Below, piece after piece: positions 2,333 through 37,565 of a stretch of DNA of 48,677 nt. Below the pieces are notes generated by a model that was given only the letters and a program-made list of their open reading frames with translations, made no database searches and was not told where the DNA came from. The translations under genes were made by a program, and so were the position numbers. Positions within the stretch are counted from its first letter, which is position 1, and each line of letters opens with the position of its first letter. Origin of the DNA: Candidatus Jordarchaeum sp. LHC_1308 (lineage in GTDB: Archaea > Asgardarchaeota > Jordiarchaeia > Jordiarchaeales > Freyrarchaeaceae); NCBI GenBank assembly GCA_019057675.1, contig JAHLWX010000003.1:1-48677 (forward strand), given 5' to 3'.

Positions 2333-3711
2333 CTCCCCTTCATAGCTTTTAACACTTCTTCCAGTTTTGGCATACAACTTCCCGAAGCCAACCTTTGAGC
2401 AGACAATGCGCTTGCTGTCATTCCAAAACGCGCACTTTCCATTAAACTGTTTCCATCCAAAATCGACTTAATGAAGCCGGCGAGGAAAGCGTCCTTCGCC
2501 CTACTTTCATTCAAAACATCCACGTCTATGCCTTCTATTTCCATAACGTCTTTCTTGGTGTAGAGAACGCAGCCACTTTTTATTCCCTTGAAAACAATTA
2601 AGCACTGCACCCCCAATTCGAGAAGGTGTGAAGTGTCGCCCACTTCCTTTGAAAGCGTATTCCAACCTCTTTCACTTAGAAGTAGAAAGTCGGTGTTTCT
2701 TAGTATTCCCTCAATGGATTTGTAGCCTCCTTCGAGGTAGAGTGAAGCAGGCTTGTAGAAAACTTTTACCTTACGTGTTTTTGCATAGCTAGCAATTAAT
2801 TCGCTTATTTCTTTAAACATTTCACAGATGCATACTGCCTTGGCATTTTTTATCATCTCCCAGTTTATCTCTTTTGGGTCTGAAATGGATAGAGCGGTCT
2901 TCGCTGTAGCCGTAACGTACGTTTTCCTTTGTCCCCTTTCAAATATGATCATTGTTCTCGGGGTCTGAAGATCCCGGTCAGTTATCAAGTTTAAGGTGTT
3001 GATCTCTTCTTTCATAAGCTCGTTAGCTATACGCCGCCCAAACATGTCGCCACCTATTTTTCCTGCTAATCCGACTTTGACGCCAAGCCTCGAAAGAGCT
3101 ATGGCTACGTTTCCACCTGACCCTCCCAAAGTCTCTCGGACATCATGAAGGAGACAGATCGCGGAAGAAGTAAGAGATTCACCATAAAGAAAATAATCGA
3201 TTGAAACGGCACCATAAACCATAACTTCAGGATCGAATGTCGTTTTCTGAAGCTTGGTTAATCCTCTGGCAACAGCGACTGAGAAAGCATTTTCAAGCTT
3301 TTCGATGTCCATGCCTTTTCTAAGACAGAGCTCCGTTATATTGTTTAAGTAGGATCTGAGTAATTCCTCAAGAACTTTCTCCAAGTCTGTTGATGGAAGG
3401 TGTCGTTTGAACATTAAGAGAAGCCAGCGACCAATATCAGTAGGCTTATACCATATTGTGTGTTTTCCCTCCTGAACTCTGTATTCTTCTTCCAAGACTC
3501 CCAGCCGAACTAAGTTTTTTAAATGAAAAATGATAGTTTTGTTGGAATGTTTTAACTGTCTTATTATGTCTTTTTGAGCTTGAACCCCGCGGTCTATCTT
3601 TTCCAGTATTTCAAGAGTTATAGGAGACCCGAAAACTTCAAGCAGAAAAGTTCTTAGGTCATGGGGATCTGCCGGGAGAAAGAGGAGATAAGGCCAACTT
3701 TCACCCATCAT
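2329..3711 (-). CDS. Winged-HTH domain fused to a PfkB/ribokinase-family carbohydrate or nucleoside kinase
   Basis: The N-terminal ~110 aa look like an ArsR/MarR-type wHTH. The remainder carries PfkB signatures (GGSGGNVAIALSRLGVKVGLAGKIGGDMFG and a C-terminal DxxGAxDAF-like KDAFLAGF). It has ATGA overlaps with both neighbouring genes. Confidence 0.7.
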   Translation of the reverse strand: MMGESWPYLLFLPADPHDLRTFLLEVFGSPITLEILEKIDRGVQAQKDIIRQLKHSNKTIIFHLKNLVRLGVLEEEYRVQEGKHTIWYKPTDIGRWLLLMFKRHLPSTDLEKVLEELLRSYLNNITELCLRKGMDIEKLENAFSVAVARGLTKLQKTTFDPEVMVYGAVSIDYFLYGESLTSSAICLLHDVRETLGGSGGNVAIALSRLGVKVGLAGKIGGDMFGRRIANELMKEEINTLNLITDRDLQTPRTMIIFERGQRKTYVTATAKTALSISDPKEINWEMIKNAKAVCICEMFKEISELIASYAKTRKVKVFYKPASLYLEGGYKSIEGILRNTDFLLLSERGWNTLSKEVGDTSHLLELGVQCLIVFKGIKSGCVLYTKKDVMEIEGIDVDVLNESRAKDAFLAGFIKSILDGNSLMESARFGMTASALSAQRLASGSCMPKLEEVLKAMKGR

Positions 3712-4109
3712 TTAGCGGTCTCCTCCAACTTTTCTATGAACATTAGCGGATAGTTGAGTTCAGGAATATACTCCATTCCTGCTGAAACTCTTACATGGCC
3801 GTACTTTACTACTAGCCTTACGGATAGATTTTTTCCACAAACCTCCGAGTAACCGAAGCTGTTCAAATCGTCACTCTGAGGCAACTTAATTTTAACCTTT
3901 ACAGATTCAACATAAGGTTGGCAGGCAACCGCTTCTTCTATCGCCTTTTCTACAACTGAAATGTTGCTTTTTGGCAAAGGCATCCCCGTAAACTGATGAT
4001 ACACCGCGCCCAACTTAATTCCCGCTTCGAAAACTGCCCTATCCCGTTCAGTAATTTCATTTCCGAAGAAACGTTTAACCATATTCTCTAAGTAACCCAA
4101 GAGACCCAC
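3708..4109 (-). CDS. mptD: Putative archaeal-type dihydroneopterin aldolase (MptD/COG2098-like)
   Basis: 133 aa. The motif ERDRAVFEAGIKLGAVYHQFTGMP resembles the MptD family. It sits in an operon with mptE. The assignment is from memory of the family, not from a search. Confidence 0.55.
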   Translation of the reverse strand: MGLLGYLENMVKRFFGNEITERDRAVFEAGIKLGAVYHQFTGMPLPKSNISVVEKAIEEAVACQPYVESVKVKIKLPQSDDLNSFGYSEVCGKNLSVRLVVKYGHVRVSAGMEYIPELNYPLMFIEKLEETAK

Positions 4110-4217
4110 CTAGATCAGTTCATGTAAGAAAGATAATATTCCCCGGGGAGTAAACATTTTTGTCTAAGAAACCTTTAAAGTTGACGTATGAAGAAATGGT
4201 TTCCTAGGAATTAACAG

Positions 4218-5606
4218 GTGAGGAATTTAGCGATGAGTGATCTTGAAGGATTAGTAAAAAGACTCATTGCAAAAGGATGGACGCAACGCCAAATAATAGA
4301 GCAGCTCATTCGAGAAGTTAAGTTTTTTAAGGGCTTAACTGAGGAAGAAGCAGCAAATTTTGCAGAAGCCGTTGTGTCAGAAGTCGAAACAGCTATGAAG
4401 GCGTTGCAAAATGAACGTGTAGGGTGGCTTCTTAAGAGCCCTAAAGCTGAAGCATCTATGCATGATTTAGGAGTCGGATGCAGAGGGGAAGGAGATTTTT
4501 TTGTTCATAGGCTTCTTTCAGAGGTGGCGGACATTGGCACTTCGCGCCTACTTGGACCGAAAGCTCAAGACGATGCGGGCGCAGTCGAACATAAAGGTAA
4601 CGTAATAGTTGTGGCAGTCGATGGAACTCATTCTCGTTTAACAGAGTTTCCTTTCATAGCCGGGTTCCACGTGACGCGGGCAGCCATGAGAGACGTTTAT
4701 GTTAAAGGAGCTAAACCCATCGCCTTGTTTGCTGACCTTCACCTTGCAGATGATGGAGACGTAGGTATACTATTTGACTTTATGAGTGGTGTTAGGGCAG
4801 TCTCAGAGCTTTCAGGTGTACCTTTGGTTGCTGGCTCTACTCTTAGAGTTGGAGGAGACATGGTTATTGGAACACGCTTTGTCTCTTGTGTTGGAGCGGT
4901 CGGAGTTATAGAGTCAAAGGAGTCTGTTGCAGCCAGGAACAAAATAAAACCAGGAGACGACATAGTGATGACTGAGGGAGCTGGAGGAGGAACTATAGCA
5001 ACTACGGCAATATACGGTGGAATGCCGGAGGTTGTCCTTGAAACGCTCAACATTCAGTTTATTGAGGCCTGTGAGGCTCTTCTAAAAGAGGGGCTCTTCA
5101 ATAAAATACATGCTGCAACAGACTGGACAAATGGTGGACTTAGAGGGGACTGTAATGAAATATGCAAAATTGCCAAAGTAGGCATAATGATATATGAAGA
5201 TAAAGTTAAGGCGCTTTTAAACCGGAAGGTGCTCGATATGCTTGAAAAGCTCTCAATAGATTACTTGGGAGTATCCATGGATGCACTCTTGATATTCACT
5301 CCTCCAAATTACACAGAGGATGTTCGACGTGCTTTAAAGAGGGCGGGAGTTAAGAGCGATGTAATAGGACGAGTCGTAGAGAACCCTAAGACCCCGGTCT
5401 TAGTGAGAAATGAGGAAAGAGTTCCCTTTGAAACCTCTTATAGGGAAGCAGCATACACTAAGATAAAGAAACTGATAGGGGAAGAAGCGCCAGTTGAAAA
5501 AGAAAGGTTTATGAAGATGGCGGAGAAAGCCGCACAACAATCTATAGGGAAGGCCAACAAAGTTGTGGAGCTTATAAGGGCGAGAGGAAAGGCATGTGAT
5601 CAGTAA
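4218..5606 (+). CDS. PurM/ThiL/HypE-superfamily ATP-utilising protein (AIR-synthase-related, COG2144-like)
   Basis: The metal/ATP motif pattern is DDAGAV...VVAVDGTHS, followed by a glycine-rich TEGAGGGTIATT. 462 aa. The start could be GTG 4218 or ATG 4233. Confidence 0.6.
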   Translation: MRNLAMSDLEGLVKRLIAKGWTQRQIIEQLIREVKFFKGLTEEEAANFAEAVVSEVETAMKALQNERVGWLLKSPKAEASMHDLGVGCRGEGDFFVHRLLSEVADIGTSRLLGPKAQDDAGAVEHKGNVIVVAVDGTHSRLTEFPFIAGFHVTRAAMRDVYVKGAKPIALFADLHLADDGDVGILFDFMSGVRAVSELSGVPLVAGSTLRVGGDMVIGTRFVSCVGAVGVIESKESVAARNKIKPGDDIVMTEGAGGGTIATTAIYGGMPEVVLETLNIQFIEACEALLKEGLFNKIHAATDWTNGGLRGDCNEICKIAKVGIMIYEDKVKALLNRKVLDMLEKLSIDYLGVSMDALLIFTPPNYTEDVRRALKRAGVKSDVIGRVVENPKTPVLVRNEERVPFETSYREAAYTKIKKLIGEEAPVEKERFMKMAEKAAQQSIGKANKVVELIRARGKACDQ

Positions 5607-5608
5607 AC

Positions 5609-6553
5609 TTACATGTCTACTACGCCGTCCTCTGTGATGAGGAACACTGTTTCTTGTTCTGGGAGGAAGGGGCTATCGACGACTCTTGCTATCCGCTGAT
5701 TACCCTTGCCTTTTCTTAAGTAAATTCTGGTTGTGCAGTTATGAGCAACTATGTGACCGCCAACAGGTTGAGTTGGGTCGCCAAAGAATGTGTCCGGTTT
5801 AGCCATAACTTGGTTCGTTACTACAACAGCCAAGTTATACAGCTCTGCAAGTCTGAGAAGAGTGTGAAGGTGCTTATTGAGCTTTTGTTGCCTCTCAGCA
5901 AGCAAACCACGCCCAACATACTCGGAACGGAAATGTCCAACGATACTGTCAACTATTATAAGCTTAATGTTTTTACCTTCATTGATAAGGTCCTCCACAC
6001 TCTGGGCAAGGTAAAGCTGATGATCAGAATTATAAGCCCTAGCGTAAGTAACCCCCTGAAGCACTTTCTTTTGGTCTAAACCGAACCTCTTTGCGATCTG
6101 AACCAATCTTTCAGGTCTAAATGTCCCCTCCGTGTCTATGTATACTGCCTCCCCATTTAATCCCCCGGACTCCACTGGTAGTTGAACAGTGACTGATAGC
6201 TGATGGCAAATTTGTGTTTTCCCGGTGCGGAACTCCCCGAAAAGTTCGGTTATCCCCCTTGTCTCAATTCCGCCACCCAGAAGTTCATCTAGGCTTTTAC
6301 ATCCAGTCATGATTTGGGAGATCTTTTTTCTCTGCTCAAGAAACTCTTCAGCGGAAATGAACCCTATGTTAACGAGTTCTCTAGCCGCTTCGATTATCTT
6401 TGCAGCGGTACTTTCACCTATCTCTGCGGCTATCGCTATTTCCTTAGGCGTCGCAACAGCCACAGCTTCCGGCGTTCTATAACCAGCTTCATAAAGCTTC
6501 TTAGCAATAGCGGGTCCGACGCCGGGGATCTCTTCCAATGAGTCCAAGGACAC
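5609..6553 (-). CDS. radA: DNA repair and recombination protein RadA
   Basis: N-terminal HhH ([17 protein letters not shown]), Walker [10 protein letters not shown] and Walker B LIIVDS are present. 314 aa. Confidence 0.95.
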
Positions 6554-14257: not shown

Positions 14258-14839
14258 TTACAATATTTTCCATAAAAGTTTTTCTCCGGCGTATTTGCGG
14301 TAAACATATATACCATCTTGGAAAACTCTCGGATCTTTCCCCTTAATCTTTGTTGCTTGTCGTATGTTGGCGGCGCTTTGCCCCACAGCCTCAACATCGA
14401 TACCTGTCAGGATTATATCGTCCTTTTCAATTTTAACGTTAACTCCGGGAAGGACCCATGTTTTTCTAGGACTCTTCTCGCCTAGGAAGTTTTCTATGAG
14501 CACTTCTCTCGTTTCCGGTATGAACTTTACACTGATGGGGAAGTGCGCGTATACAATTTTCATCACGTATTTGTAGCTCTGAGTGACCCCTATAATCATA
14601 TTTTTAATGTGACTTCTCACACTTCCTAGGACAGCTAGTTGTTTTTTCTTAGCATAATAAGATTCCAAAACGATTTTTCTGTCTTCTTTTCTTATTGTTA
14701 TGCCTCTGGCATGAGAGAAGTCTTTTTCCAGTTTGCCGAGGGGGCCGCTGACACTTACTTTCATCCCATCGATGCTTATTTCTACATTATTTGGTATCTC
14801 GATTTCCAATGTTGTACAAACCGATTTAACCATCTGCAT
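14258..14839 (-). CDS. rpl6: 50S ribosomal protein uL6, inverted relative to the rest of the cluster
   Basis: The sequence IEIPNNVEISIDGMKVSVSGPLGKLEKDF...GVTQSYKYVMKIVYAHFPISV...GIDVEAVGQSAANIRQ is clearly uL6, but it is encoded on the minus strand. Confidence 0.9.
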   Translation of the reverse strand: MQMVKSVCTTLEIEIPNNVEISIDGMKVSVSGPLGKLEKDFSHARGITIRKEDRKIVLESYYAKKKQLAVLGSVRSHIKNMIIGVTQSYKYVMKIVYAHFPISVKFIPETREVLIENFLGEKSPRKTWVLPGVNVKIEKDDIILTGIDVEAVGQSAANIRQATKIKGKDPRVFQDGIYVYRKYAGEKLLWKIL

Positions 14840-14926
14840 CTTCCCCTGAAAGATGAGTCAATGGGGAAGAAAAAAGGAGAGGCTTAAATCTATTTCGCAA
14901 ACTTTCCTTGGAAAAAGGCTGTCCAT

Positions 14927-15589
14927 TCACCTTTTAATACGTTCACTCCACTCTTCAAGCTTACCCATTATCTCCTCGGCTGTTTTGATGTCTAGCTTTG
15001 CCGTTCCACTTGCCCTTAACTGCTTAATTAGCTGTGAAATCTCATAAAATATCGGGCCATGAACTCTCGATTGTAACTGGTCTCTGGCCTCTTCTAGTGC
15101 TCGGGCTATATCTTCGGCTGGCCGGCTTCTTTCAAGCGCCTCAACTACCTGTGAAAACGCGGGAGAGACACGCACACCAAAACTTCTAACGGCTATCGTC
15201 CCCTCGATAAGATGTTGAGGTTGAACGGGGGATACTCCTTCAACGGTTGCTATTGTTTCTTTAGATTTGCCCGCAAGAAGTCCCTCAACACGCCTCACGC
15301 TATTTAGTATTTCATCCATTTTCGTTAATGAGACAGTCAAGCCAGTAGTTGCTTGACGCACTTCATTTAACACGTTTCGGAGCTCGCTTATTGATGCCCT
15401 AATTTCGCCAAAAACTCCAAAGACAGCCTTTGAAAAATCATCGAGAACAACTTTAACGGCAGAAATTTCCTCTAAAAGTTTTTCAACAAACTTATCCTTA
15501 CCTGCCTCCAAGAAGGCACCCTCCAACCAACATAATCCTTTAAGCTCAACATTGACCCAACATGGCTTCAGATGAAAATATTTGTTCAT
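14927..15589 (-). CDS. Hypothetical protein, predicted coiled-coil, upstream of and co-oriented with rpl6
   Basis: 220-aa ORF. Heptad-like helical sequence (ISELRNVLNEVRQATTGLTVSLTKMDEILNSVRRVEGLL). I recognise no motif. The start is uncertain. Confidence 0.5.
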   Translation of the reverse strand: MNKYFHLKPCWVNVELKGLCWLEGAFLEAGKDKFVEKLLEEISAVKVVLDDFSKAVFGVFGEIRASISELRNVLNEVRQATTGLTVSLTKMDEILNSVRRVEGLLAGKSKETIATVEGVSPVQPQHLIEGTIAVRSFGVRVSPAFSQVVEALERSRPAEDIARALEEARDQLQSRVHGPIFYEISQLIKQLRASGTAKLDIKTAEEIMGKLEEWSERIKR

Positions 15590-19126: not shown

Positions 19127-20791
19127 GTGAACTTTATGGCTGGCACTTTCTTGAAGCTCTTCAAACCATTGATTCGTTTTATGCCGGAGGTTAAGCCTCC
19201 TGAGAGGAGAGTTAGCTTCAGAGAGAAGTTAATATGGACTGGCGTCATTCTAGTTCTTTATATAATAATGGCGAACCTTCCACTTTATGGTGTCCCACAA
19301 GGGCAGGGATACGATTACTTGTATTTTCTCAGAGTTATCCTTGCTTCATCTAGAGGGACGCTAATGGAGCTGGGTATAGGGCCCATAGTTACTGCAGGCC
19401 TTGTTATGCAACTGCTCGCAGGCTCAAAACTGATCGATGTTGACTTCTCAAACCCGGAGGACAGGGCGCTCTTTACCGGAGCACAAAAAGCACTCGCGGT
19501 TCTGATGACGATGATGGAGGCAGGAGTGTTTATTGCTGCTAGAGCATATGGCGATTTATCAACTTACCAAGCTGCGTTGGTTTTCCTTCAGTTAACTGCT
19601 GCAGGAATAGCCCTCATATTAATGGATGAGACGCTCCAGAAAGGCTGGGGGCTTGGAAGCGGGATAAGCCTGTTCATAGCAGCTAACGTAGCTGGGCAGA
19701 TCATCTGGCTCACTCTAAACCCCAATCCAAGCCCATACGACTATCTCGGAGTAGGCGTGTTGGTGGCATTAGTTCAGGTGATAACGTTTCCCTATTGGCC
19801 TATGGCATCAATGTTTCTACAAGTTTTAGGGTCTTATCCTTCGACTCAGCGGTTTAGTGAAGAGGCAATTTCAGCCGCCACACAAGCAGCAACTTACATG
19901 TTCTACTATATGGCATTTAATCCTAATACCGCCTTATACTATGTTTTTTTTAGATCCCATGGTCAGCCAAACATTATTGGACTTCTAGGCACACTGATTA
20001 TTTTCTTGATAGTGATACTTATTCAAAGCGTGAGGGTTGAGATACCTCTCCAGTATGCGCGCTTCAGAGGTTTTAGAGGGAGGTATCCGATAAAGTTTCT
20101 TTACGTGTCAGTCATACCAGTCATTTTAGTTCAAGCTATAATTGCAAACCTACTGCTGGTTTCGCAAGTCTTATGGTCCAATGTAGGGTTCGTTTCGCTA
20201 GCGCAACTTATACCATTCTTGAAAGAAGCTTGGCCAAATATCGATTTAAACTTGTTAATGCAATTTTCCAGTATTGGATGGAACTTCAACCCGCTTGTTA
20301 ATATTATAGGACAATTTATTCCTTCCACAACAAATCTAAATCAGTTAACTCCAGCTGGAGGAATAGCGTACTATTTCTCAACGCCCTATGGGTTAGAGAA
20401 TGTCTTCAGGGATCCGGGGCGGGCATTAATTTACCTTCTCATTTTCTCTTCGCTTTGCGCCGCGCTTTCATACATATGGATAGATGTATCCGGAATGAGC
20501 GCAAGGGATGTAGCCAATCAGCTGATAATGGCGGGAATGCAGGTTCCGGGGTTTAGGAGGTCGCCCAAAATAGTGGAAAAAATCCTTGAAAGATACATTC
20601 CACCCGTTACGGTGCTTGGCGGATTTGCGGTGGGGCTACTAGCTGCGTTCGCGGATTTTCTTGGAGCTCTGGGAACTGGTACAGGAGTTTTGCTGACTGT
20701 AGGAATACTTTATAATTACTACGAGTTAATTGCAAAGGAGCAGTTGGCATCAATCAGTCCCGCATTAAGGGGATTGCTGGGATTAGAGTGA
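19127..20791 (+). CDS. secY: Preprotein translocase subunit SecY, unusually long at 554 aa
   Basis: SecY blocks are conserved: LGIGPIVTAGLVMQLL, GWGLGSGISLFIAANV, YPIKFLYVSVIPVIL, GIAYYFSTPYGL, GTGVLLTVGI. It occupies the expected slot in the cluster. Confidence 0.95.
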   Translation: MNFMAGTFLKLFKPLIRFMPEVKPPERRVSFREKLIWTGVILVLYIIMANLPLYGVPQGQGYDYLYFLRVILASSRGTLMELGIGPIVTAGLVMQLLAGSKLIDVDFSNPEDRALFTGAQKALAVLMTMMEAGVFIAARAYGDLSTYQAALVFLQLTAAGIALILMDETLQKGWGLGSGISLFIAANVAGQIIWLTLNPNPSPYDYLGVGVLVALVQVITFPYWPMASMFLQVLGSYPSTQRFSEEAISAATQAATYMFYYMAFNPNTALYYVFFRSHGQPNIIGLLGTLIIFLIVILIQSVRVEIPLQYARFRGFRGRYPIKFLYVSVIPVILVQAIIANLLLVSQVLWSNVGFVSLAQLIPFLKEAWPNIDLNLLMQFSSIGWNFNPLVNIIGQFIPSTTNLNQLTPAGGIAYYFSTPYGLENVFRDPGRALIYLLIFSSLCAALSYIWIDVSGMSARDVANQLIMAGMQVPGFRRSPKIVEKILERYIPPVTVLGGFAVGLLAAFADFLGALGTGTGVLLTVGILYNYYELIAKEQLASISPALRGLLGLE

Positions 20792-23345: not shown

Positions 23346-24408
23346 ATGGTGATTTATGTGCCTAAAAGTATTCCGCCGGAAGGCATGAAAAGAAAGGTGA
23401 TCATTAAAAGTGAGGATGAAACTAGTGAAGAGTACGGTAAACACCCTAGCGAGAGGAGCGTAAAAGAACTTTTAGAGGGATGCTTCGTGAACATAGATAA
23501 GCCAGCAGGCCCAACTAGCCATGAGGTCTCATCTTGGGTAAGGAGGATTTTGGGCTGCTCGAAGACAGGACATGCCGGGACACTAGAACCCCTTCAGTCC
23601 CTTGGAGGGGTGGTGAAACCCTAAGGTTACTGGAGTCCTGCCGGTGGCGATAGGTTCTGCCACAAAGATCATACAGGCCCTCCATCTTATAGGAAAAGAA
23701 TATGTTTGCGTTATGAGGATGCATGGGGACGTCGAAGCTGAAAGAATTCAAAGGGTTTGTAAGGAATTTACTGGGCTGATTTATCAGAGACCACCAATAC
23801 GCTCTTCGGTGAAACGCAGACTTAGAATAAGACGAATATATTACCTTGACGTGCTCGAAGTGGAAGGGAGAAATGTCTTGCTAAAAGTAGGATGCGAGTC
23901 TGGAACTTACATAAGGAAGATCTGCCACGATATAGGGGAAGTGTTAGGCTGCGGAGCTCATATGCGCGAGCTTAGGAGGACTCGAAGTGGACCCTTCACC
24001 GAGGAGAACATGGTAACATTGCATGATTTAAAAGACGCATATGTTTTTTGGAAAGAAGAAAGTGATGAGAAGTACCTTAAAAAAGTATTATTACCAGCAG
24101 AAGAAGGAGTCCGTCACTTGCCCAAGTTTTTCGTGAGAGACTCGGCTGTCGACGCTATATGTCATGGAGCGGACCTGGCGATTCCCGGAATTGTCAAGTT
24201 TGAAGATGGAGTGGAGAAAGGCGACATGGTTGCAATTTTGACTCTAAAGGGGGAACTTGTGGCTCTTGGTGTTGCCATGATGACCGCGGAGGAAGTCATA
24301 AAAGAAAAGCGTGGAATAGCTGTTAAAACAGCAAGGGTAATAATGGACAAGGGGACATACCCAAAACTCTGGAAAAGCAAGAAGAGCAACTATTCAATCG
24401 AGCAATGA
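23346..24408 (+). CDS. cbf5: tRNA/rRNA pseudouridine synthase Cbf5 (H/ACA RNP catalytic subunit), split by a 31-nt intron: join(23346..23586,23618..24408)
   Basis: Track ORFs 23346..23624 and 23644..24408 are the two halves of Cbf5, in different frames. Removing 23587..23617 gives ...[24 protein letters not shown]..., the TruB/Cbf5 catalytic-Asp motif. The product is 343 aa. The C-terminal PUA domain is present. Confidence 0.9.
23587..23617 (+). other. BHB-type intron in cbf5 (31 nt)
   Basis: Structure: CACU[AGA]ACCCCUUCA-gucccu-UGGAGGGGU GGUG[AAA]CCC. The central 4-bp helix pairs 23581-84 with 23612-15 (3 Watson-Crick pairs and 1 G.U). Two 3-nt bulges flank it. The inner helix is 9 bp (23588-96 with 23603-11). 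Cleavage after nt 2 of each bulge gives CUA G|AC CCU. Confidence 0.8.
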
Positions 24409-24485: not shown

Positions 24486-24791
24486 TTGAAGTATCCTAAA
24501 GTTAGGCGAACCTACTGCCCACGATGTAAAGCACACACGGAGCACACGGTTAGTGTCTATAAAAAAGGTAAAGATAGGACGCTGGCTGCAGGGGCTAGGC
24601 GTTATGCGAGGAAAAAGCGGGGTTATGGAAGTCAACCTAAGCTCCTCTACATTTTGTAGAGGAGGGGCAAGCCCGTTCAGAGAGAAATTGCGAAGACCAC
24701 CAAGAAAGTTAGCTTTAAGCTTAAGTGTAAGGAGTGCGGCCACATAATTCACACTAGGGGTATCCGCCTCAAAAAAGCTGAAGCAGTTTAG
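24486..24791 (+). CDS. rpl44e: 50S ribosomal protein eL42 (L44e), split by a 30-nt intron: join(24486..24640,24671..24791)
   Basis: Not in the ORF track as a single ORF. My hand translation is [52 protein letters not shown]|[39 protein letters not shown]. Both CxxC pairs are present. TTG start with a GGAGGG SD-like element upstream. The unspliced frame hits TAG at 24657-24659. Confidence 0.85.
24641..24670 (+). other. BHB-type intron in rpl44e (30 nt, in frame, carries a TAG stop)
   Basis: Structure: ACCU[AAG]CUCCUCUAC-auuuu-GUAGAGGAG GGGC[AAG]CCC. The inner helix is a perfect 9 bp (24642-50 with 24656-64). The central helix pairs 24635-38 with 24665-68 (2 G-C, 1 G.U, 1 A/C mismatch). The outer helix is weak. 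Confidence 0.7.
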
Positions 24792-32301: not shown

Positions 32302-32924
32302 CTTTCCCAGTAGCGCCCCCTCCTTTCGATTTCCCACATTTTCTCTATAACTTCATTCGCTTCTTCGAAAGTTTCCCTATAACCTTGAAGAACCGCGCTG
32401 AACCCTTCTTCAAAGACGTCATAATGACTGCTCTCCATTGCCCGCTTCATCAGGTGAAGGTCAACCCCCAAATCTTCAACGTTCCTCGAAAAGTCTCCAA
32501 GCCCAAAATCAATGAAAAAAATTTTCCCACCACTAACGATCATGTTTGAAGTTGTTAGATCTCCGTGCACTATGCCTTCCTTGTGAAGCCGTCCTATTAA
32601 CTTGCCTACTTCACGCAACAATCCGACTAGTTCTTCACGTGACAATTTTCTTTCCTTTATGAGGTCGCTTAGAGTTTTTCCATCGATATAATCCATAATT
32701 ATGGAGGTAGATTCCAAATTGATAAGGTAAACTGTGGGTGTTGGAACGCCAGCTTTTTTGGCGCTGTGGAGCAAGCGTGCCTCTCTAACGACCCTCTGTT
32801 TTCTCAAGTTGTCATCGAGTTCTTTAATTCTGTATAACTTGGGTTTACGCTCCTTAACGATAACTTTTTTCCCCGAGATGAAGTCAAGGAAAAGATGAGC
32901 TTCAGCTCCTTTTTTAATAATCAT
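32298..32924 (-). CDS. bud32: KEOPS kinase/ATPase Bud32
   Basis: Small RIO-like kinase with KGAEA, VHGDLTTSNMI and IDFGL motifs. It has an ATGA overlap with kae1. Confidence 0.9.
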   Translation of the reverse strand: MIIKKGAEAHLFLDFISGKKVIVKERKPKLYRIKELDDNLRKQRVVREARLLHSAKKAGVPTPTVYLINLESTSIIMDYIDGKTLSDLIKERKLSREELVGLLREVGKLIGRLHKEGIVHGDLTTSNMIVSGGKIFFIDFGLGDFSRNVEDLGVDLHLMKRAMESSHYDVFEEGFSAVLQGYRETFEEANEVIEKMWEIERRGRYWER

Positions 32925-33917
32925 GATGTCTCACCTTTGACCCATGAAACTTGAACTTCATCAAGACGCCACTTTGGCTTCACGTAACTTTCCTCCATCA
33001 TTAAGGTTCTTCCACTGATATACTCAAGTATTCCCGCCCAAGCTATCATTGCTCCGTTGTCTCCTGCTAGCTGCGGAGGAACCACGTGAAAAGAAGCACC
33101 ATGCTCTTCAGCTACCACCCTGATCATTTCTTGCAGTCTTCTGTTCCTGCCAACGCCTCCTGTTAGCAGAACGCTGTCCTTACGCGTATGCGCCAGAGCC
33201 CTTTCAGTAACCTCGGCTAACATGGAAAAACATACTTCTTGAACACTGTAACATAAATCTTCAGCTTTGCAACTGCCAATCTTGCCAACTGCAGCAGTGT
33301 AAACCCCTGAGTAGGAAAGATCCATTCCCTTGACAACATATGGCAACGAGACAAACACACTCCCTTTATACGCCAACTCTTCAATCTTAGGCCCACCGGG
33401 ATGCCTTAAGCCCAGCGCCCTAGCGAACATATCTAACATGTTCCCAATGGCTAGATCAAGCGTTTCCCCAAATATACGATACCTACCTTTCTCGTACGCT
33501 GCAACTAAAGTGTTTCCTCCTGAAACGTACAACGTTAGGGGATCTTCAACGTTTTCTGTAAGGCGGCCAATTTCAATGTGGGCCAGACAGTGATTAACAC
33601 CCACTAAGGGAACGTTAAGTGCCAGCGAGAGAGCTCTAGCAGCTGTCGCCACAGTCCTCAAACATGGGCCTTTAGGGGCTTCCTAACCCCGGCCCTCGAG
33701 AGAATGCGACTAAGTTAATCTCACTTATTTTAATGCCTGCCTCGTTTATGGCAGAGATAAGCACTTGCCTAACTACATTCGAGTGGTGCTGTGCGGCTTC
33801 CCTAGGGTGGATTCCGCCTTCAGCGGGTACATATTCATCTCTGACGTTCGCCAAGATCTCGCCTTCACTACTTACCACACCTACACCCAACGTGTGAGCG
33901 GTTCCTTCGATACCCAT
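32921..33917 (-). CDS. kae1: tRNA t6A synthesis protein Kae1 (KEOPS catalytic subunit), split by a 13-nt intron: complement(join(32921..33671,33685..33917))
   Basis: Track ORFs 33672..34169 (real start at M85, MGIEGTAHTLGV) and 32921..33661 are the two halves, in different frames. Removing 33672..33684 gives ...[43 protein letters not shown]. The product is 327 aa. Confidence 0.9.
33672..33684 (-). other. BHB-type mini-intron in kae1 (13 nt)
   Basis: Minus strand: GGGCC GGGG[UUA]ggaagcCCCU[AAA]GGCCC. The outer helix is 5 bp (33695-91 with 33670-66). The central helix is 4 bp (33690-87 with 33677-74, 3 G-C and 1 G.U). There is a 3-nt 3' bulge. The 5' site lies in the terminal loop, so there is no inner helix. 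Canonical cleavage gives GGG UU|A GGC CCA. Confidence 0.75.
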
Positions 33918-36329: not shown

Positions 36330-37565
36330 TAAGTCTCCACCTTCCTGAAACCATTCGATTCACAGCCACTCTCTGACCGCACTCAGCACACACGGGGCGT
36401 CGCAACACTACCTCGACTTCGTCGCTTTTAATCGACGAAACGGTACCAACGGTCACTGCTGACCCAACATTCAGCATCAATGTTTCATTAACACGCACTT
36501 TTTCCACCTTAGAGAGCTCCTCGCTTCCCACGACGCGCTCCATTAGGTGAAGTTCAATGCACAAATCGTTACACACAGGTGGAAGTGTTCCAGGAGCACC
36601 CACAACATTTCCAATCAAACCATCGGCTTTAGTCAAAGAAGGATCCAGCAGTGTACCAATACCGATTAGTCCACCCGGCAAAGCTTCATTGAGTGGTACA
36701 TCACCAGCATGCAAACTTACAACATCAGTATAAATAGGCTCAAACCCACCCTTGACGGCGGCACCTGGTCGAATTTCAATCTCATCTCCAACCTTAACTC
36801 TACCCTGAACGATCGTACCTCCAATAACGCCTCCAACAAGATCCTCAGGTCTAGTCCCCGGCTTATTCACGTCAAATGACCTTGCCACATACATCCTCAT
36901 GGGCTTACTTGGGTCTCTGACAGGGTTAGGGATGCGTTCCTCCATAAACTGCAGCAAAACATCCAAGTTAGCGCCAAAAACAGCTGAAACAGGAATAATA
37001 GGAGCATCCTCAGCAAAACTACCTCTAATAAATTCTTTGATCTGCCTGAAATTTTCTAACGCCTTCTCTCTAGAGACAAGTTCGACTTTATTCTGAACAA
37101 TAACAATGTTCTTCACGCCAACGATTTCCAAAGCAGCAAAATGCTCCCGAGTCTGTGGCTGAGGACAGGGTTCATTAGCAGCAATAACAAAGACGCATCC
37201 ATCCATCAGCGACGCACCCGACAGCATCGTCGCCATCAGCCGCTCATGACCGGGCGAATCCACAAAGCTAATCTTCCTTACAAACTCAGCATCGCTCCCA
37301 CATTTAGGGCATTTCCATCCCCCAGCCATAGCCAAAGTAAAGTAACAGTCAGGAGGCGGGCACGACGGGCATTTCAAAACAATAGCATCAGCGTAACCCA
37401 GTTTGATCGTAATACCACGACGTTGCTCCTCACTATGACGGTCAGCCCAGACGCCAGTCAAAACATGAACAAGCGTTGTTCTCGGCCCCTCCGGCATCAG
37501 CCGCAGGGCTTACCGTGATCAACATGGCCCGCTGTGCCAATCGAAACCAAACTCTGCGTTCTCAT
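36307..37565 (-). CDS. eif2g: Translation initiation factor aIF2 gamma subunit, split by a 29-nt intron: complement(join(36307..37480,37510..37565))
   Basis: The track ORF (36307..37497) lacks the P-loop. Upstream, a 19-codon exon reads MRTQSLVSIGTAGHVDHGK. Removing 37481..37509 gives ...[39 protein letters not shown]. The product is 409 aa. Confidence 0.9.
37481..37509 (-). other. BHB-type intron in aIF2-gamma (29 nt)
   Basis: Minus strand: CGGU[AAG]CCCUGCGG-cugaug-CCGGAGGG GCCG[AGA]ACAACG. The central helix pairs 37515-12 with 37486-83 (3 G-C and 1 G.U). Two 3-nt bulges flank it. The inner helix is 8 positions with one G/G mismatch. Cleavage gives GGU AA|A ACA (Gly-Lys-Thr). Confidence 0.8.

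Follow-up and report, generated by a model that had tools for sequence, protein, structure and literature searches.

We analyzed a 48,677-nt stretch of DNA from Candidatus Jordarchaeum sp. LHC_1308 (the whole stretch is called the window here), with a focus on kae1, a minus-strand gene interrupted by a short insert that is a candidate mini-intron. The kae1 reading frame is broken by 13 nt at 33684..33672, exactly at GPGL/GPCLR (a slash marks the break), with an in-frame TAA as the result. Minus strand 33700..33655 is CTCGAGGGCCGGGGTTAGGAAGCCCCTAAAGGCCCATGTTTGAGGA, and in codons the region of the insert reads TTC TCT CGA GGG CCG GGG TTA GGA AGC CCC TAA A GGC CCA TGT TTG AGG. The upstream open reading frame (ORF), which starts at ATG 33917, reads LVAFSRGPGLGSP (FSRGPGLGSP and stop) and ends at the TAA at 33674..33672. 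The downstream ORF, one base out of phase, reads GPCLRTVATAAR and runs to 32921; the stretch ahead of its first start codon is GPCLRTVATAARAL. Deletion of the 13 nt gives a 984-nt kae1 ORF with a 327-aa product that matches NCBIfam arch_KAE1 over its full length at 499 bits (cutoff 375). Aligned with Kae1 of Pyrococcus abyssi (PDB 2IVN), this product has no gap at the junction (afsrgpglgpclrtvataaral), and the 78 N-terminal residues encoded by exon 1 align with 2IVN residues 4-81. A sequence-only reading of this DNA had recognized the 13-nt interruption and its TAA, but had set the break one residue off, at GPGLG/PCLR; the actual break lies between Leu and Gly. The cut that it proposed, UU/A and AA/A ahead of GGC, is correct. 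Removal of 33684..33672 corresponds to this canonical cut, and an AGG repeat gives three further equivalent placements. The spliced junction predicted for the kae1 mRNA is CCGGGGTTAGGCCCATG. Coordinates of all features are collected in Table 1.

Comparison with relatives carries most of the evidence. Protein searches, first with spliced Kae1 and then with the C-terminal part alone, found numerous Kae1 'proteins' that start just past the motif and are 223-253 aa long; these truncated fragments form one group at 85-91% identity and another at 64-70% identity. On most of the contigs fetched, a separate N-terminal ORF of the TsaD family lies just upstream; every truncated fragment of the 85-91% group has such a partner, and the split recurs in the lineages at 64-70%. 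We read the DNA of 23 loci (from independent NCBI, Logan, ENA, and JGI assemblies; numbered with the prefix L) in addition to the window, and found an insert at the same kae1 codon in 11 distinct sequences, that is, the window and 10 others (Table 1). Insert lengths are mostly no multiple of three, and the interiors, 13-32 nt long, are unalignable between lineages. Close insert-bearing clusters are present on at least 37 contigs, and the 14-nt form was read as DNA in 14 loci. In contrast, kae1 is uninterrupted in L106, L107, the Bathyarchaeia, Hadarchaeia, methanogen, and Loki/Hod loci, and five JGI contigs. Those five came from a pattern scan of JGI metagenomes, which gave three intron-bearing loci and six other matches: one unrelated sequence and the five intron-less kae1 genes, which had matched through an upstream coincidence. 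A protein-based scan of GTDB genomes, with a ranking that favors single-segment matches, returned only uninterrupted kae1, and we used these genes as intron-less controls. We note that the bud32 ORF of L090 (10723..11004; GCA_038886715.1), one of the 14-nt relatives, begins some 275 nt further on than that of its siblings, which points to an insertion, or to another interruption, between this ORF and kae1.

These data also bear on the quality of the sequence itself. A spurious insertion, or a homopolymer error in CCCC or AAA, could be suspected since the exact 13-nt form occurs on this contig only and the insert holds two short homopolymers. However, homologous 14-nt inserts are found in NCBI metagenome-assembled genomes, in Logan assemblies of several Sequence Read Archive runs, and in JGI contigs; a single-base error could account for 13 rather than 14 nt, but not for the presence of an insert. 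Because inserts recur in NCBI, Logan, ENA, and JGI sources on those 37 or more contigs, an assembly artifact is ruled out, and we give it a negligible probability.

The longer inserts show most directly what the reading frame demands. Between the kae1 exons of L104 and L108 there are stops in all three frames, and the 30-nt insert of L101, which is in frame, yet carries TAA and TGA. Where an insert blocks every frame, Kae1 is obtainable only by removal at the RNA level, and no translational trick would serve in those lineages. Three of these forms (L102, L105, and L108) are complete hBHBh' motifs of the bulge-helix-bulge (BHB) family, in which a 4-bp helix lies between two 3-nt bulges; the L102 fold is GGACC-CGGU-[UUA]-AAACU...AGUUU-GCUG-[AAA]-GGUCC. 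Ten of the 11 sequences have AAA as their 3' bulge, the three bases ahead of the outer helix; the eleventh has UGA. An in silico cut between the second and third bulge residues, the position at which the endonuclease is known to cut (PMC2738675), gives YUA-GGN-CCN, and thereby Leu-Gly-Pro, in 11/11.

Pairing was counted on the 11 sequences after the variable interior had been trimmed (alignment A2). Of the cells in the proposed helices, 99% are paired, and three pairs show double-sided changes. The covariation score is 0.436 versus 0.160 for shuffles (0/500 reach it), and it does not exceed 0.162 when partners are slid by 1-3 columns. In the 5-bp outer helix, four pairs are fixed by Gly-Pro codons; the middle one, the sole position free of coding, is paired in all 11 sequences (6 GC, 2 AU, 2 CG, and 1 UA). 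All 44 cells of the central helix pair, with GU, GC, AU, or CG at pair 1 and GC, UG, or CG at pair 4. In a negative control, complementarity of the two Gly wobble positions was seen in 11/11 intron-bearing kae1 genes versus 31/70 (44%) of intron-less ones. These 70 distinct intron-less archaeal sequences have identical spacing in the GPGLGP loop, without any length variation.

The exons are under strong selection. Between the window and its closest relative, L001, the ratio of nonsynonymous to synonymous substitution rates (dN/dS) is 0.047 at a dS of about 1.2, where synonymous sites are near saturation; by part, it is 0.07 in exon 1 and 0.04 in exon 2. Under this constraint the interrupted kae1 must be expressed as a whole. 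This bears on the reading of kae1 as a split gene, in which a polypeptide of about 84 aa would be accompanied by one of 246 aa that starts anew at TTG 33661, or as a recent pseudogene. Gene callers and the NCBI annotation do give two ORFs in every assembly, and the TTG comes after the break. Yet the break lies within the invariant GPGLGPxLR loop, and a restart would remove Gly-Pro-Cys. Start codons vary among relatives (MLKGPCLR, MPKGPCLR, VFAPKGACLR, MRT...), the first starts either omitting GPC or falling within the insert, and the fragments are always adjacent, with helix covariation that spans the gap. A dN/dS of 0.05 over this dS excludes long-standing decay, and four other essential genes of the window show the same pattern (see below). 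We therefore consider a split gene or pseudogene very unlikely.

Taken with the same-codon inserts, the covariation, and the frame logic in relatives, which support the intron reading already put forward from the sequence, we conclude that the 13-nt kae1 insert is very probably an endonuclease-type intron of the BHB family in a pre-mRNA, reduced to a bulge-helix-loop (BHL).

The anatomy of the window element fits this reduced class. Its 9-nt terminal loop, UUAGGAAGC, stands where longer homologues have a 5' bulge and an inner helix. The strict hBHBh' form, with a 3-nt bulge on the 5' side and an inner helix, is absent from the window, where at most one G:C pair could form beyond the site in the loop. 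Because its 5' site is in the 9-nt loop, the element qualifies only as the relaxed BHL/hBH subtype; this bears out the earlier proposal of a relaxed form with the 5' site in the loop, which matches the BHL motif of tRNA introns. The fold proposed at that time (GGGCC/GGCCC, GGGG/CCCU, and AAA) can form, but it is not the minimum-energy fold. For the window, RNAfold gives a register-shifted 6-bp helix, GGGGUU/AGCCCC, with a 4-nt UAAA bulge (-19.1 versus -14.4 kcal/mol at 37 C); the gap between the shifted and the required register shrinks to 2.7 kcal/mol at 75 C. Considered alone, the window fold has z = -2.3, with 7 of 200 shuffles equally stable. Since z is only -2.3 and the shifted register is preferred, the fold of a single sequence does not settle the intron question; the evidence that the insert is more than a chance structure comes from the comparative data.

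Table 1. Positions of the kae1 parts, the proposed fold, the other predicted introns of the window, and the same-codon kae1 inserts of relatives. Positions are those of the window; a slash inside square brackets marks a predicted splice site within a bulge.
Feature	Position	Strand	Remarks
kae1 exon 1	33685..33917	-	ATG 33917..33915; MGIEGTAH... to ...FSRGPG, plus UU of the Leu codon
Candidate 13-nt mini-intron AGGAAGCCCCUAA	33672..33684	-	Canonical cut; same-codon inserts of 14-32 nt in relatives
kae1 exon 2	32921..33671	-	A of the Leu codon, then GPCLRTVATAAR... through the stop codon
Outer helix, 5' strand GGGCC	33691..33695	-	Exon 1 Gly-Pro codons; partner 33670..33666
Outer helix, 3' strand GGCCC	33666..33670	-	Exon 2 Gly-Pro codons
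Central 4-bp helix, exon strand GGGG	33687..33690	-	Partner 33677..33674
Central 4-bp helix, intron strand CCCU	33674..33677	-	Partner 33687..33690
3' bulge AAA	33671..33673	-	Predicted 3' splice site between 33672 and 33671
9-nt terminal loop UUAGGAAGC	33678..33686	-	Predicted 5' splice site between 33685 and 33684
Predicted cbf5 intron, 31 nt	23587..23617	+	Canonical BHB, CACU[AG/A]...GGUG[AA/A]
Predicted L44e intron, 30 nt	24641..24670	+	BHB-like; in frame but contains TAG; restores GYGSQPK/PVQRE
Predicted aIF2-gamma intron, 29 nt	37481..37509	-	BHB, CGGU[AA/G]...GCCG[AG/A]; restores P-loop GHVDHGK/TTL
Predicted aEF-1alpha intron, 35 nt	38525..38559	+	Canonical BHB, GGGC[AC/A]...GCUU[AA/A]; restores DAPGH/KDF
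kae1 insert, 13 nt			Window
kae1 insert, 14 nt, five variants			L001/L099; L002/3; L004/5; L086-91; L095/97
kae1 insert, 25 nt			L102/3
kae1 insert, 25 nt, second version			L105
kae1 insert, 28 nt			L104
kae1 insert, 30 nt			L101
kae1 insert, 32 nt			L108/9

Several observations weigh against an intron. The exact 13-nt length occurs in one assembly only, and every close relative has 14 nt. At 37 C, the window and four of the five 14-nt relatives prefer a fold shifted by one register, with a 4- or 5-nt bulge, and the required register with its 3-nt bulge is 3-10 kcal/mol less stable in those short forms; cutting in the shifted register would put the mRNA out of frame. A loop rather than a bulge holds the 5' site, and substrates of this kind are cut only by broad-specificity enzymes. 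A Pfam scan of ten otherwise unidentified ORFs, a minority of those in the window, found neither endA nor rtcB; we infer splicing, and the type of enzyme is taken from the literature on other Asgard archaea. Finally, the short forms carry sequences on which a ribosome could slip. The window has CCC UAA A, a textbook site prone to +1 shifts, and the heptamer C_CCA_AAG, present in most 14-nt relatives, could allow a -1 shift to the correct frame.

These last sites raise programmed +1 ribosomal frameshifting at CCC_UAA_A as an explanation, in which a tRNA-Pro in the P site would move from CCC to CCU while a slow stop codon occupies the A site and the hairpin acts as stimulator. The product would bear a 4-residue insert (GPGL-GSPK-GPCLR), detectable as peptides containing GPGLGSPKGPCLR. 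For the short forms taken alone, frameshifting is not absurd. However, the shift would have to be +1 in the 13-nt form but -1 in the 14-nt form of sister lineages; the CUA_AAG of L095/L097 does not make a slippery heptamer; and among the homologues, the inserts of 28, 30, and 32 nt are closed by stops, either in every frame or in frame. The peptides that would be inserted (GSPK, AKPPK, VGPPK, ENPLK) are unconserved while the RNA pairing is conserved, and they would add 4-5 residues to a loop that lacks length variation in the 70 intron-less sequences. We thus regard frameshifting as highly improbable. Translational bypassing, of the kind known from phage T4 gene 60 or the yeast mitochondrial 'byps', would have the ribosome take off at Leu and land 13 nt further on. 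A stop codon and a hairpin do lie just past a site that resembles a take-off site, but there is no matching landing codon for UUA, and gap lengths and sequences vary widely among homologues, in which BHB geometry is the conserved feature. Its probability is, in our view, close to nil.

Returning to an endonuclease-type intron, we infer cleavage, ligation, and the enzymes involved from the anatomy, conservation, covariation, frame logic, and exon selection described above, and propose the following course. The Gly-Pro codon pairs that flank the site (GGGCC...GGCCC) would form the 5-bp outer helix, and the next four exon bases, GGGG, would pair with CCCU of the intron in the 4-bp central helix. 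The AAA bulge on the 3' side would carry the 3' splice site, with the 5' splice site at the symmetric position, two bases beyond the central helix and within the 9-nt loop. A tRNA-splicing endonuclease of the broad-specificity (alpha-beta)2 form would then cut UU/A and AA/A, and an RtcB-type ligase would join the exons to GGG CCG GGG UUA GGC CCA (GPGLGP), giving full-length Kae1. Asgard EndA is reported to be an (alpha-beta)2 enzyme with an L1 loop that permits relaxed motifs (PMC5829648).

The distribution of lengths suggests a history for this element. In a crude neighbor-joining tree, from which L095 (cut by a contig end) and L108 (lost in extraction) were left out, the nine intron-bearing Kae1 sequences included form one clade; the 25-28 nt forms are deepest, and the 13/14-nt group has the 30-nt form as its sister. 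The simplest history for these sequences would be a single insertion followed by loss of the inner helix. We propose that an ancestral canonical BHB intron of 25-32 nt entered this codon in the ancestor of an Asgard clade and was later shortened along the branch of the Jordarchaeales, to 14 nt and, in the window, to 13 nt. A 2-bp GC/GC inner helix with a GAA triloop is still possible in three of the 14-nt variants (the L001, L004, and L086 groups); the window, one base short of that helix, has a plain loop. The kae1 site may be predisposed to such an element, as it is flanked on each side by Gly-Pro codons (GGNCC...GGNCC), whose sequence is inherently self-complementary.

The window appears to hold further introns of this kind (Table 1). 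Removal of the predicted cbf5 intron restores the codon of the catalytic Asp (GTL-D-PKVTG), and relatives L086-L089 have 29 nt at the same cbf5 site. The predicted L44e intron, with a single A.C mismatch in its central helix, corresponds to 29 nt in relatives, for which gene callers give no more than a 57-aa fragment. In L086 (approximately 6095..6165), the aIF2-gamma intron agrees with that of the window in site and length (29 nt), and its central helix shows compensatory changes, UGGC/GCCA versus CGGU/GCCG in the window; L086 also has a second intron of 33 nt at GH/VD, which the window is without. The predicted aEF-1alpha intron has a perfect 10-bp inner hairpin. In the close relative L086, aEF-1alpha (3307..4614, minus strand) is uninterrupted and reads exactly as the splice product predicted for the window, that is, as an empty site. 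This empty site confirms the aEF-1alpha intron by comparison and is the nearest thing here to an experimental control; the intron is a presence/absence polymorphism.

The five predicted introns of the window were found by eye, and their number is a lower bound: mRNA introns of this kind often have weak exon-side helices or lack them, and scans are too noisy. A strict de novo BHB scan of the window with ORF repair gave 225 candidates versus 146-183 in shuffles and recovered, among the five, only the aEF-1alpha intron; a loose scan of the window recovered cbf5 among approximately 200 false candidates. At least 5 of about 55 genes in the window are affected (kae1, cbf5, L44e, aIF2-gamma, and aEF-1alpha), each at a highly conserved motif, and intron content varies between close relatives, the aEF-1alpha intron being confined to the window and the extra aIF2-gamma intron to the relative. 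We lean toward the view, with distinctly less confidence than for the kae1 intron itself, that a dynamic population of BHB mini-introns has colonized many essential coding genes in Jordarchaeia/Freyarchaeia.

Spliced aEF-1alpha from the window is 94% identical to a Candidatus Jordarchaeales protein and 91% identical to a Candidatus Freyarchaeota protein, both Asgard. On L104 (1..1111) and L108 (1..848), which carry the 28- and 32-nt kae1 introns, kae1 adjoins two small GTPase genes of the Arf/Ras/Roc family, which fits an Asgard affiliation of these contigs. In one complete Freyarchaeia genome and in two Atabeyarchaeia genomes, 92-95% of the tRNA genes are reported to have introns, often several per gene and outside the canonical positions (PMC11291895). 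In the 48.7-kb window, no tRNA gene was found by ARAGORN, and Rfam gave nothing at the gathering threshold; given the intron load of Freyarchaeia, heavily interrupted tRNA genes could be hidden in the window. Two other features of the window are recorded here. The ribosomal L6 gene (14258..14839) and a 220-aa ORF without a Pfam match (14927..15589), both on the minus strand, sit inside an otherwise plus-strand ribosomal operon (S8...L32e-L19e-L18-S5), which suggests a local inversion of the block at 14258..15589. The SecY ORF (19127..20791, plus strand) has 554 aa, which we take to be longer than expected for an archaeal SecY; it is a candidate for an in-frame, stop-free intron or a lineage-specific insertion.

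The closest known counterpart is the cbf5 pre-mRNA intron of Desulfurococcales and Sulfolobales (Watanabe 2002; Yokobori 2009, PMC2738675). Both are short BHB-type introns within the coding region of an RNA-modification enzyme that break a conserved or catalytic motif, with a cut, predicted in the case of kae1, between the second and third bulge residues and an interior of variable length; both show lineage-specific gain and loss, and the link of cbf5 introns with hetero-oligomeric endonucleases would extend to kae1. The kae1 intron differs in host gene, in its occurrence in Asgard archaea and not Thermoproteota, in length (13-14 versus 16-44 nt), and in the loss of the inner helix. Moreover, splicing of cbf5 was shown by cDNA and in vitro cleavage, whereas splicing of kae1 is predicted. 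In architecture, the window element resembles the relaxed hBH, HBh', and BHL introns in tRNAs of Crenarchaeota, Nanoarchaeota, and ARMAN, which combine a 4-bp helix with a single 3-nt bulge and with a loop that carries the other splice site; cleavage of these relaxed tRNA motifs depends on an endonuclease of the (alpha-beta)2 or epsilon2 type that has a specific loop (PMC5829648, PMC12397907). EndA of A. pernix cleaves an hBH mini-helix RNA oligonucleotide in vitro. Unlike these tRNA introns, the kae1 element lies in a coding mRNA, and the exon halves of its helices are also constrained as Gly-Pro-Gly-Leu and Gly-Pro codons. The HVO_1309 intron of Haloferax volcanii is likewise a BHB motif in an mRNA that is cut by the splicing endonuclease (PMC7714728). 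It differs from kae1 in being a canonical BHB of 46 nt in a 5' untranslated region (UTR), cut by an alpha2 enzyme, with no repair of a reading frame. In HAC1/XBP1 splicing in eukaryotes, an mRNA intron is removed independently of the spliceosome by an endonuclease and a tRNA-type ligase, with a change of frame (26 nt in XBP1); the nuclease there is IRE1, the motif a twin stem-loop, and the process is regulated by stress, a regulation of which the kae1 data show no sign. This unconventional mRNA splicing is named in PMC4090602, and the kae1 intron differs from it in both nuclease and motif.

For more than 20 years, cbf5 was the sole archaeal coding region shown to have an endonuclease-spliced intron, and a 2023 review speaks of 'at least two' archaeal mRNAs spliced by the endonuclease in all. 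Our literature search for archaeal mRNA substrates found only cbf5 and the HVO_1309 5' UTR, and kae1 or Asgard coding introns may still be published elsewhere. The putative kae1 intron would thus represent a known mechanism in a new host gene and a new phylum, with a new minimum size for an intron in a coding region, as 13 nt falls below the 16-44 nt range of cbf5 introns. Together with its sister introns in four genes within 15 kb, it would multiply the list of archaeal coding-region introns, and the 13-14 nt forms would define the minimum RNA of the endonuclease as one bulge, four base pairs, and a loop. If coding genes have been colonized as widely as proposed above, gene calls for these genomes are systematically broken. 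Essential proteins such as Kae1, Cbf5, aIF2-gamma, and EF-1alpha are annotated as fragments or partials, and this distorts estimates of completeness, sets of phylogenomic markers, and counts of pseudogenes for these lineages. Such colonization would also mean routine splicing of mRNA by the tRNA machinery, with ongoing gain and loss of introns, in the prokaryotic lineage nearest to eukaryotes, and mRNA splicing in Asgard archaea would bear on ideas about the origin of interrupted genes.

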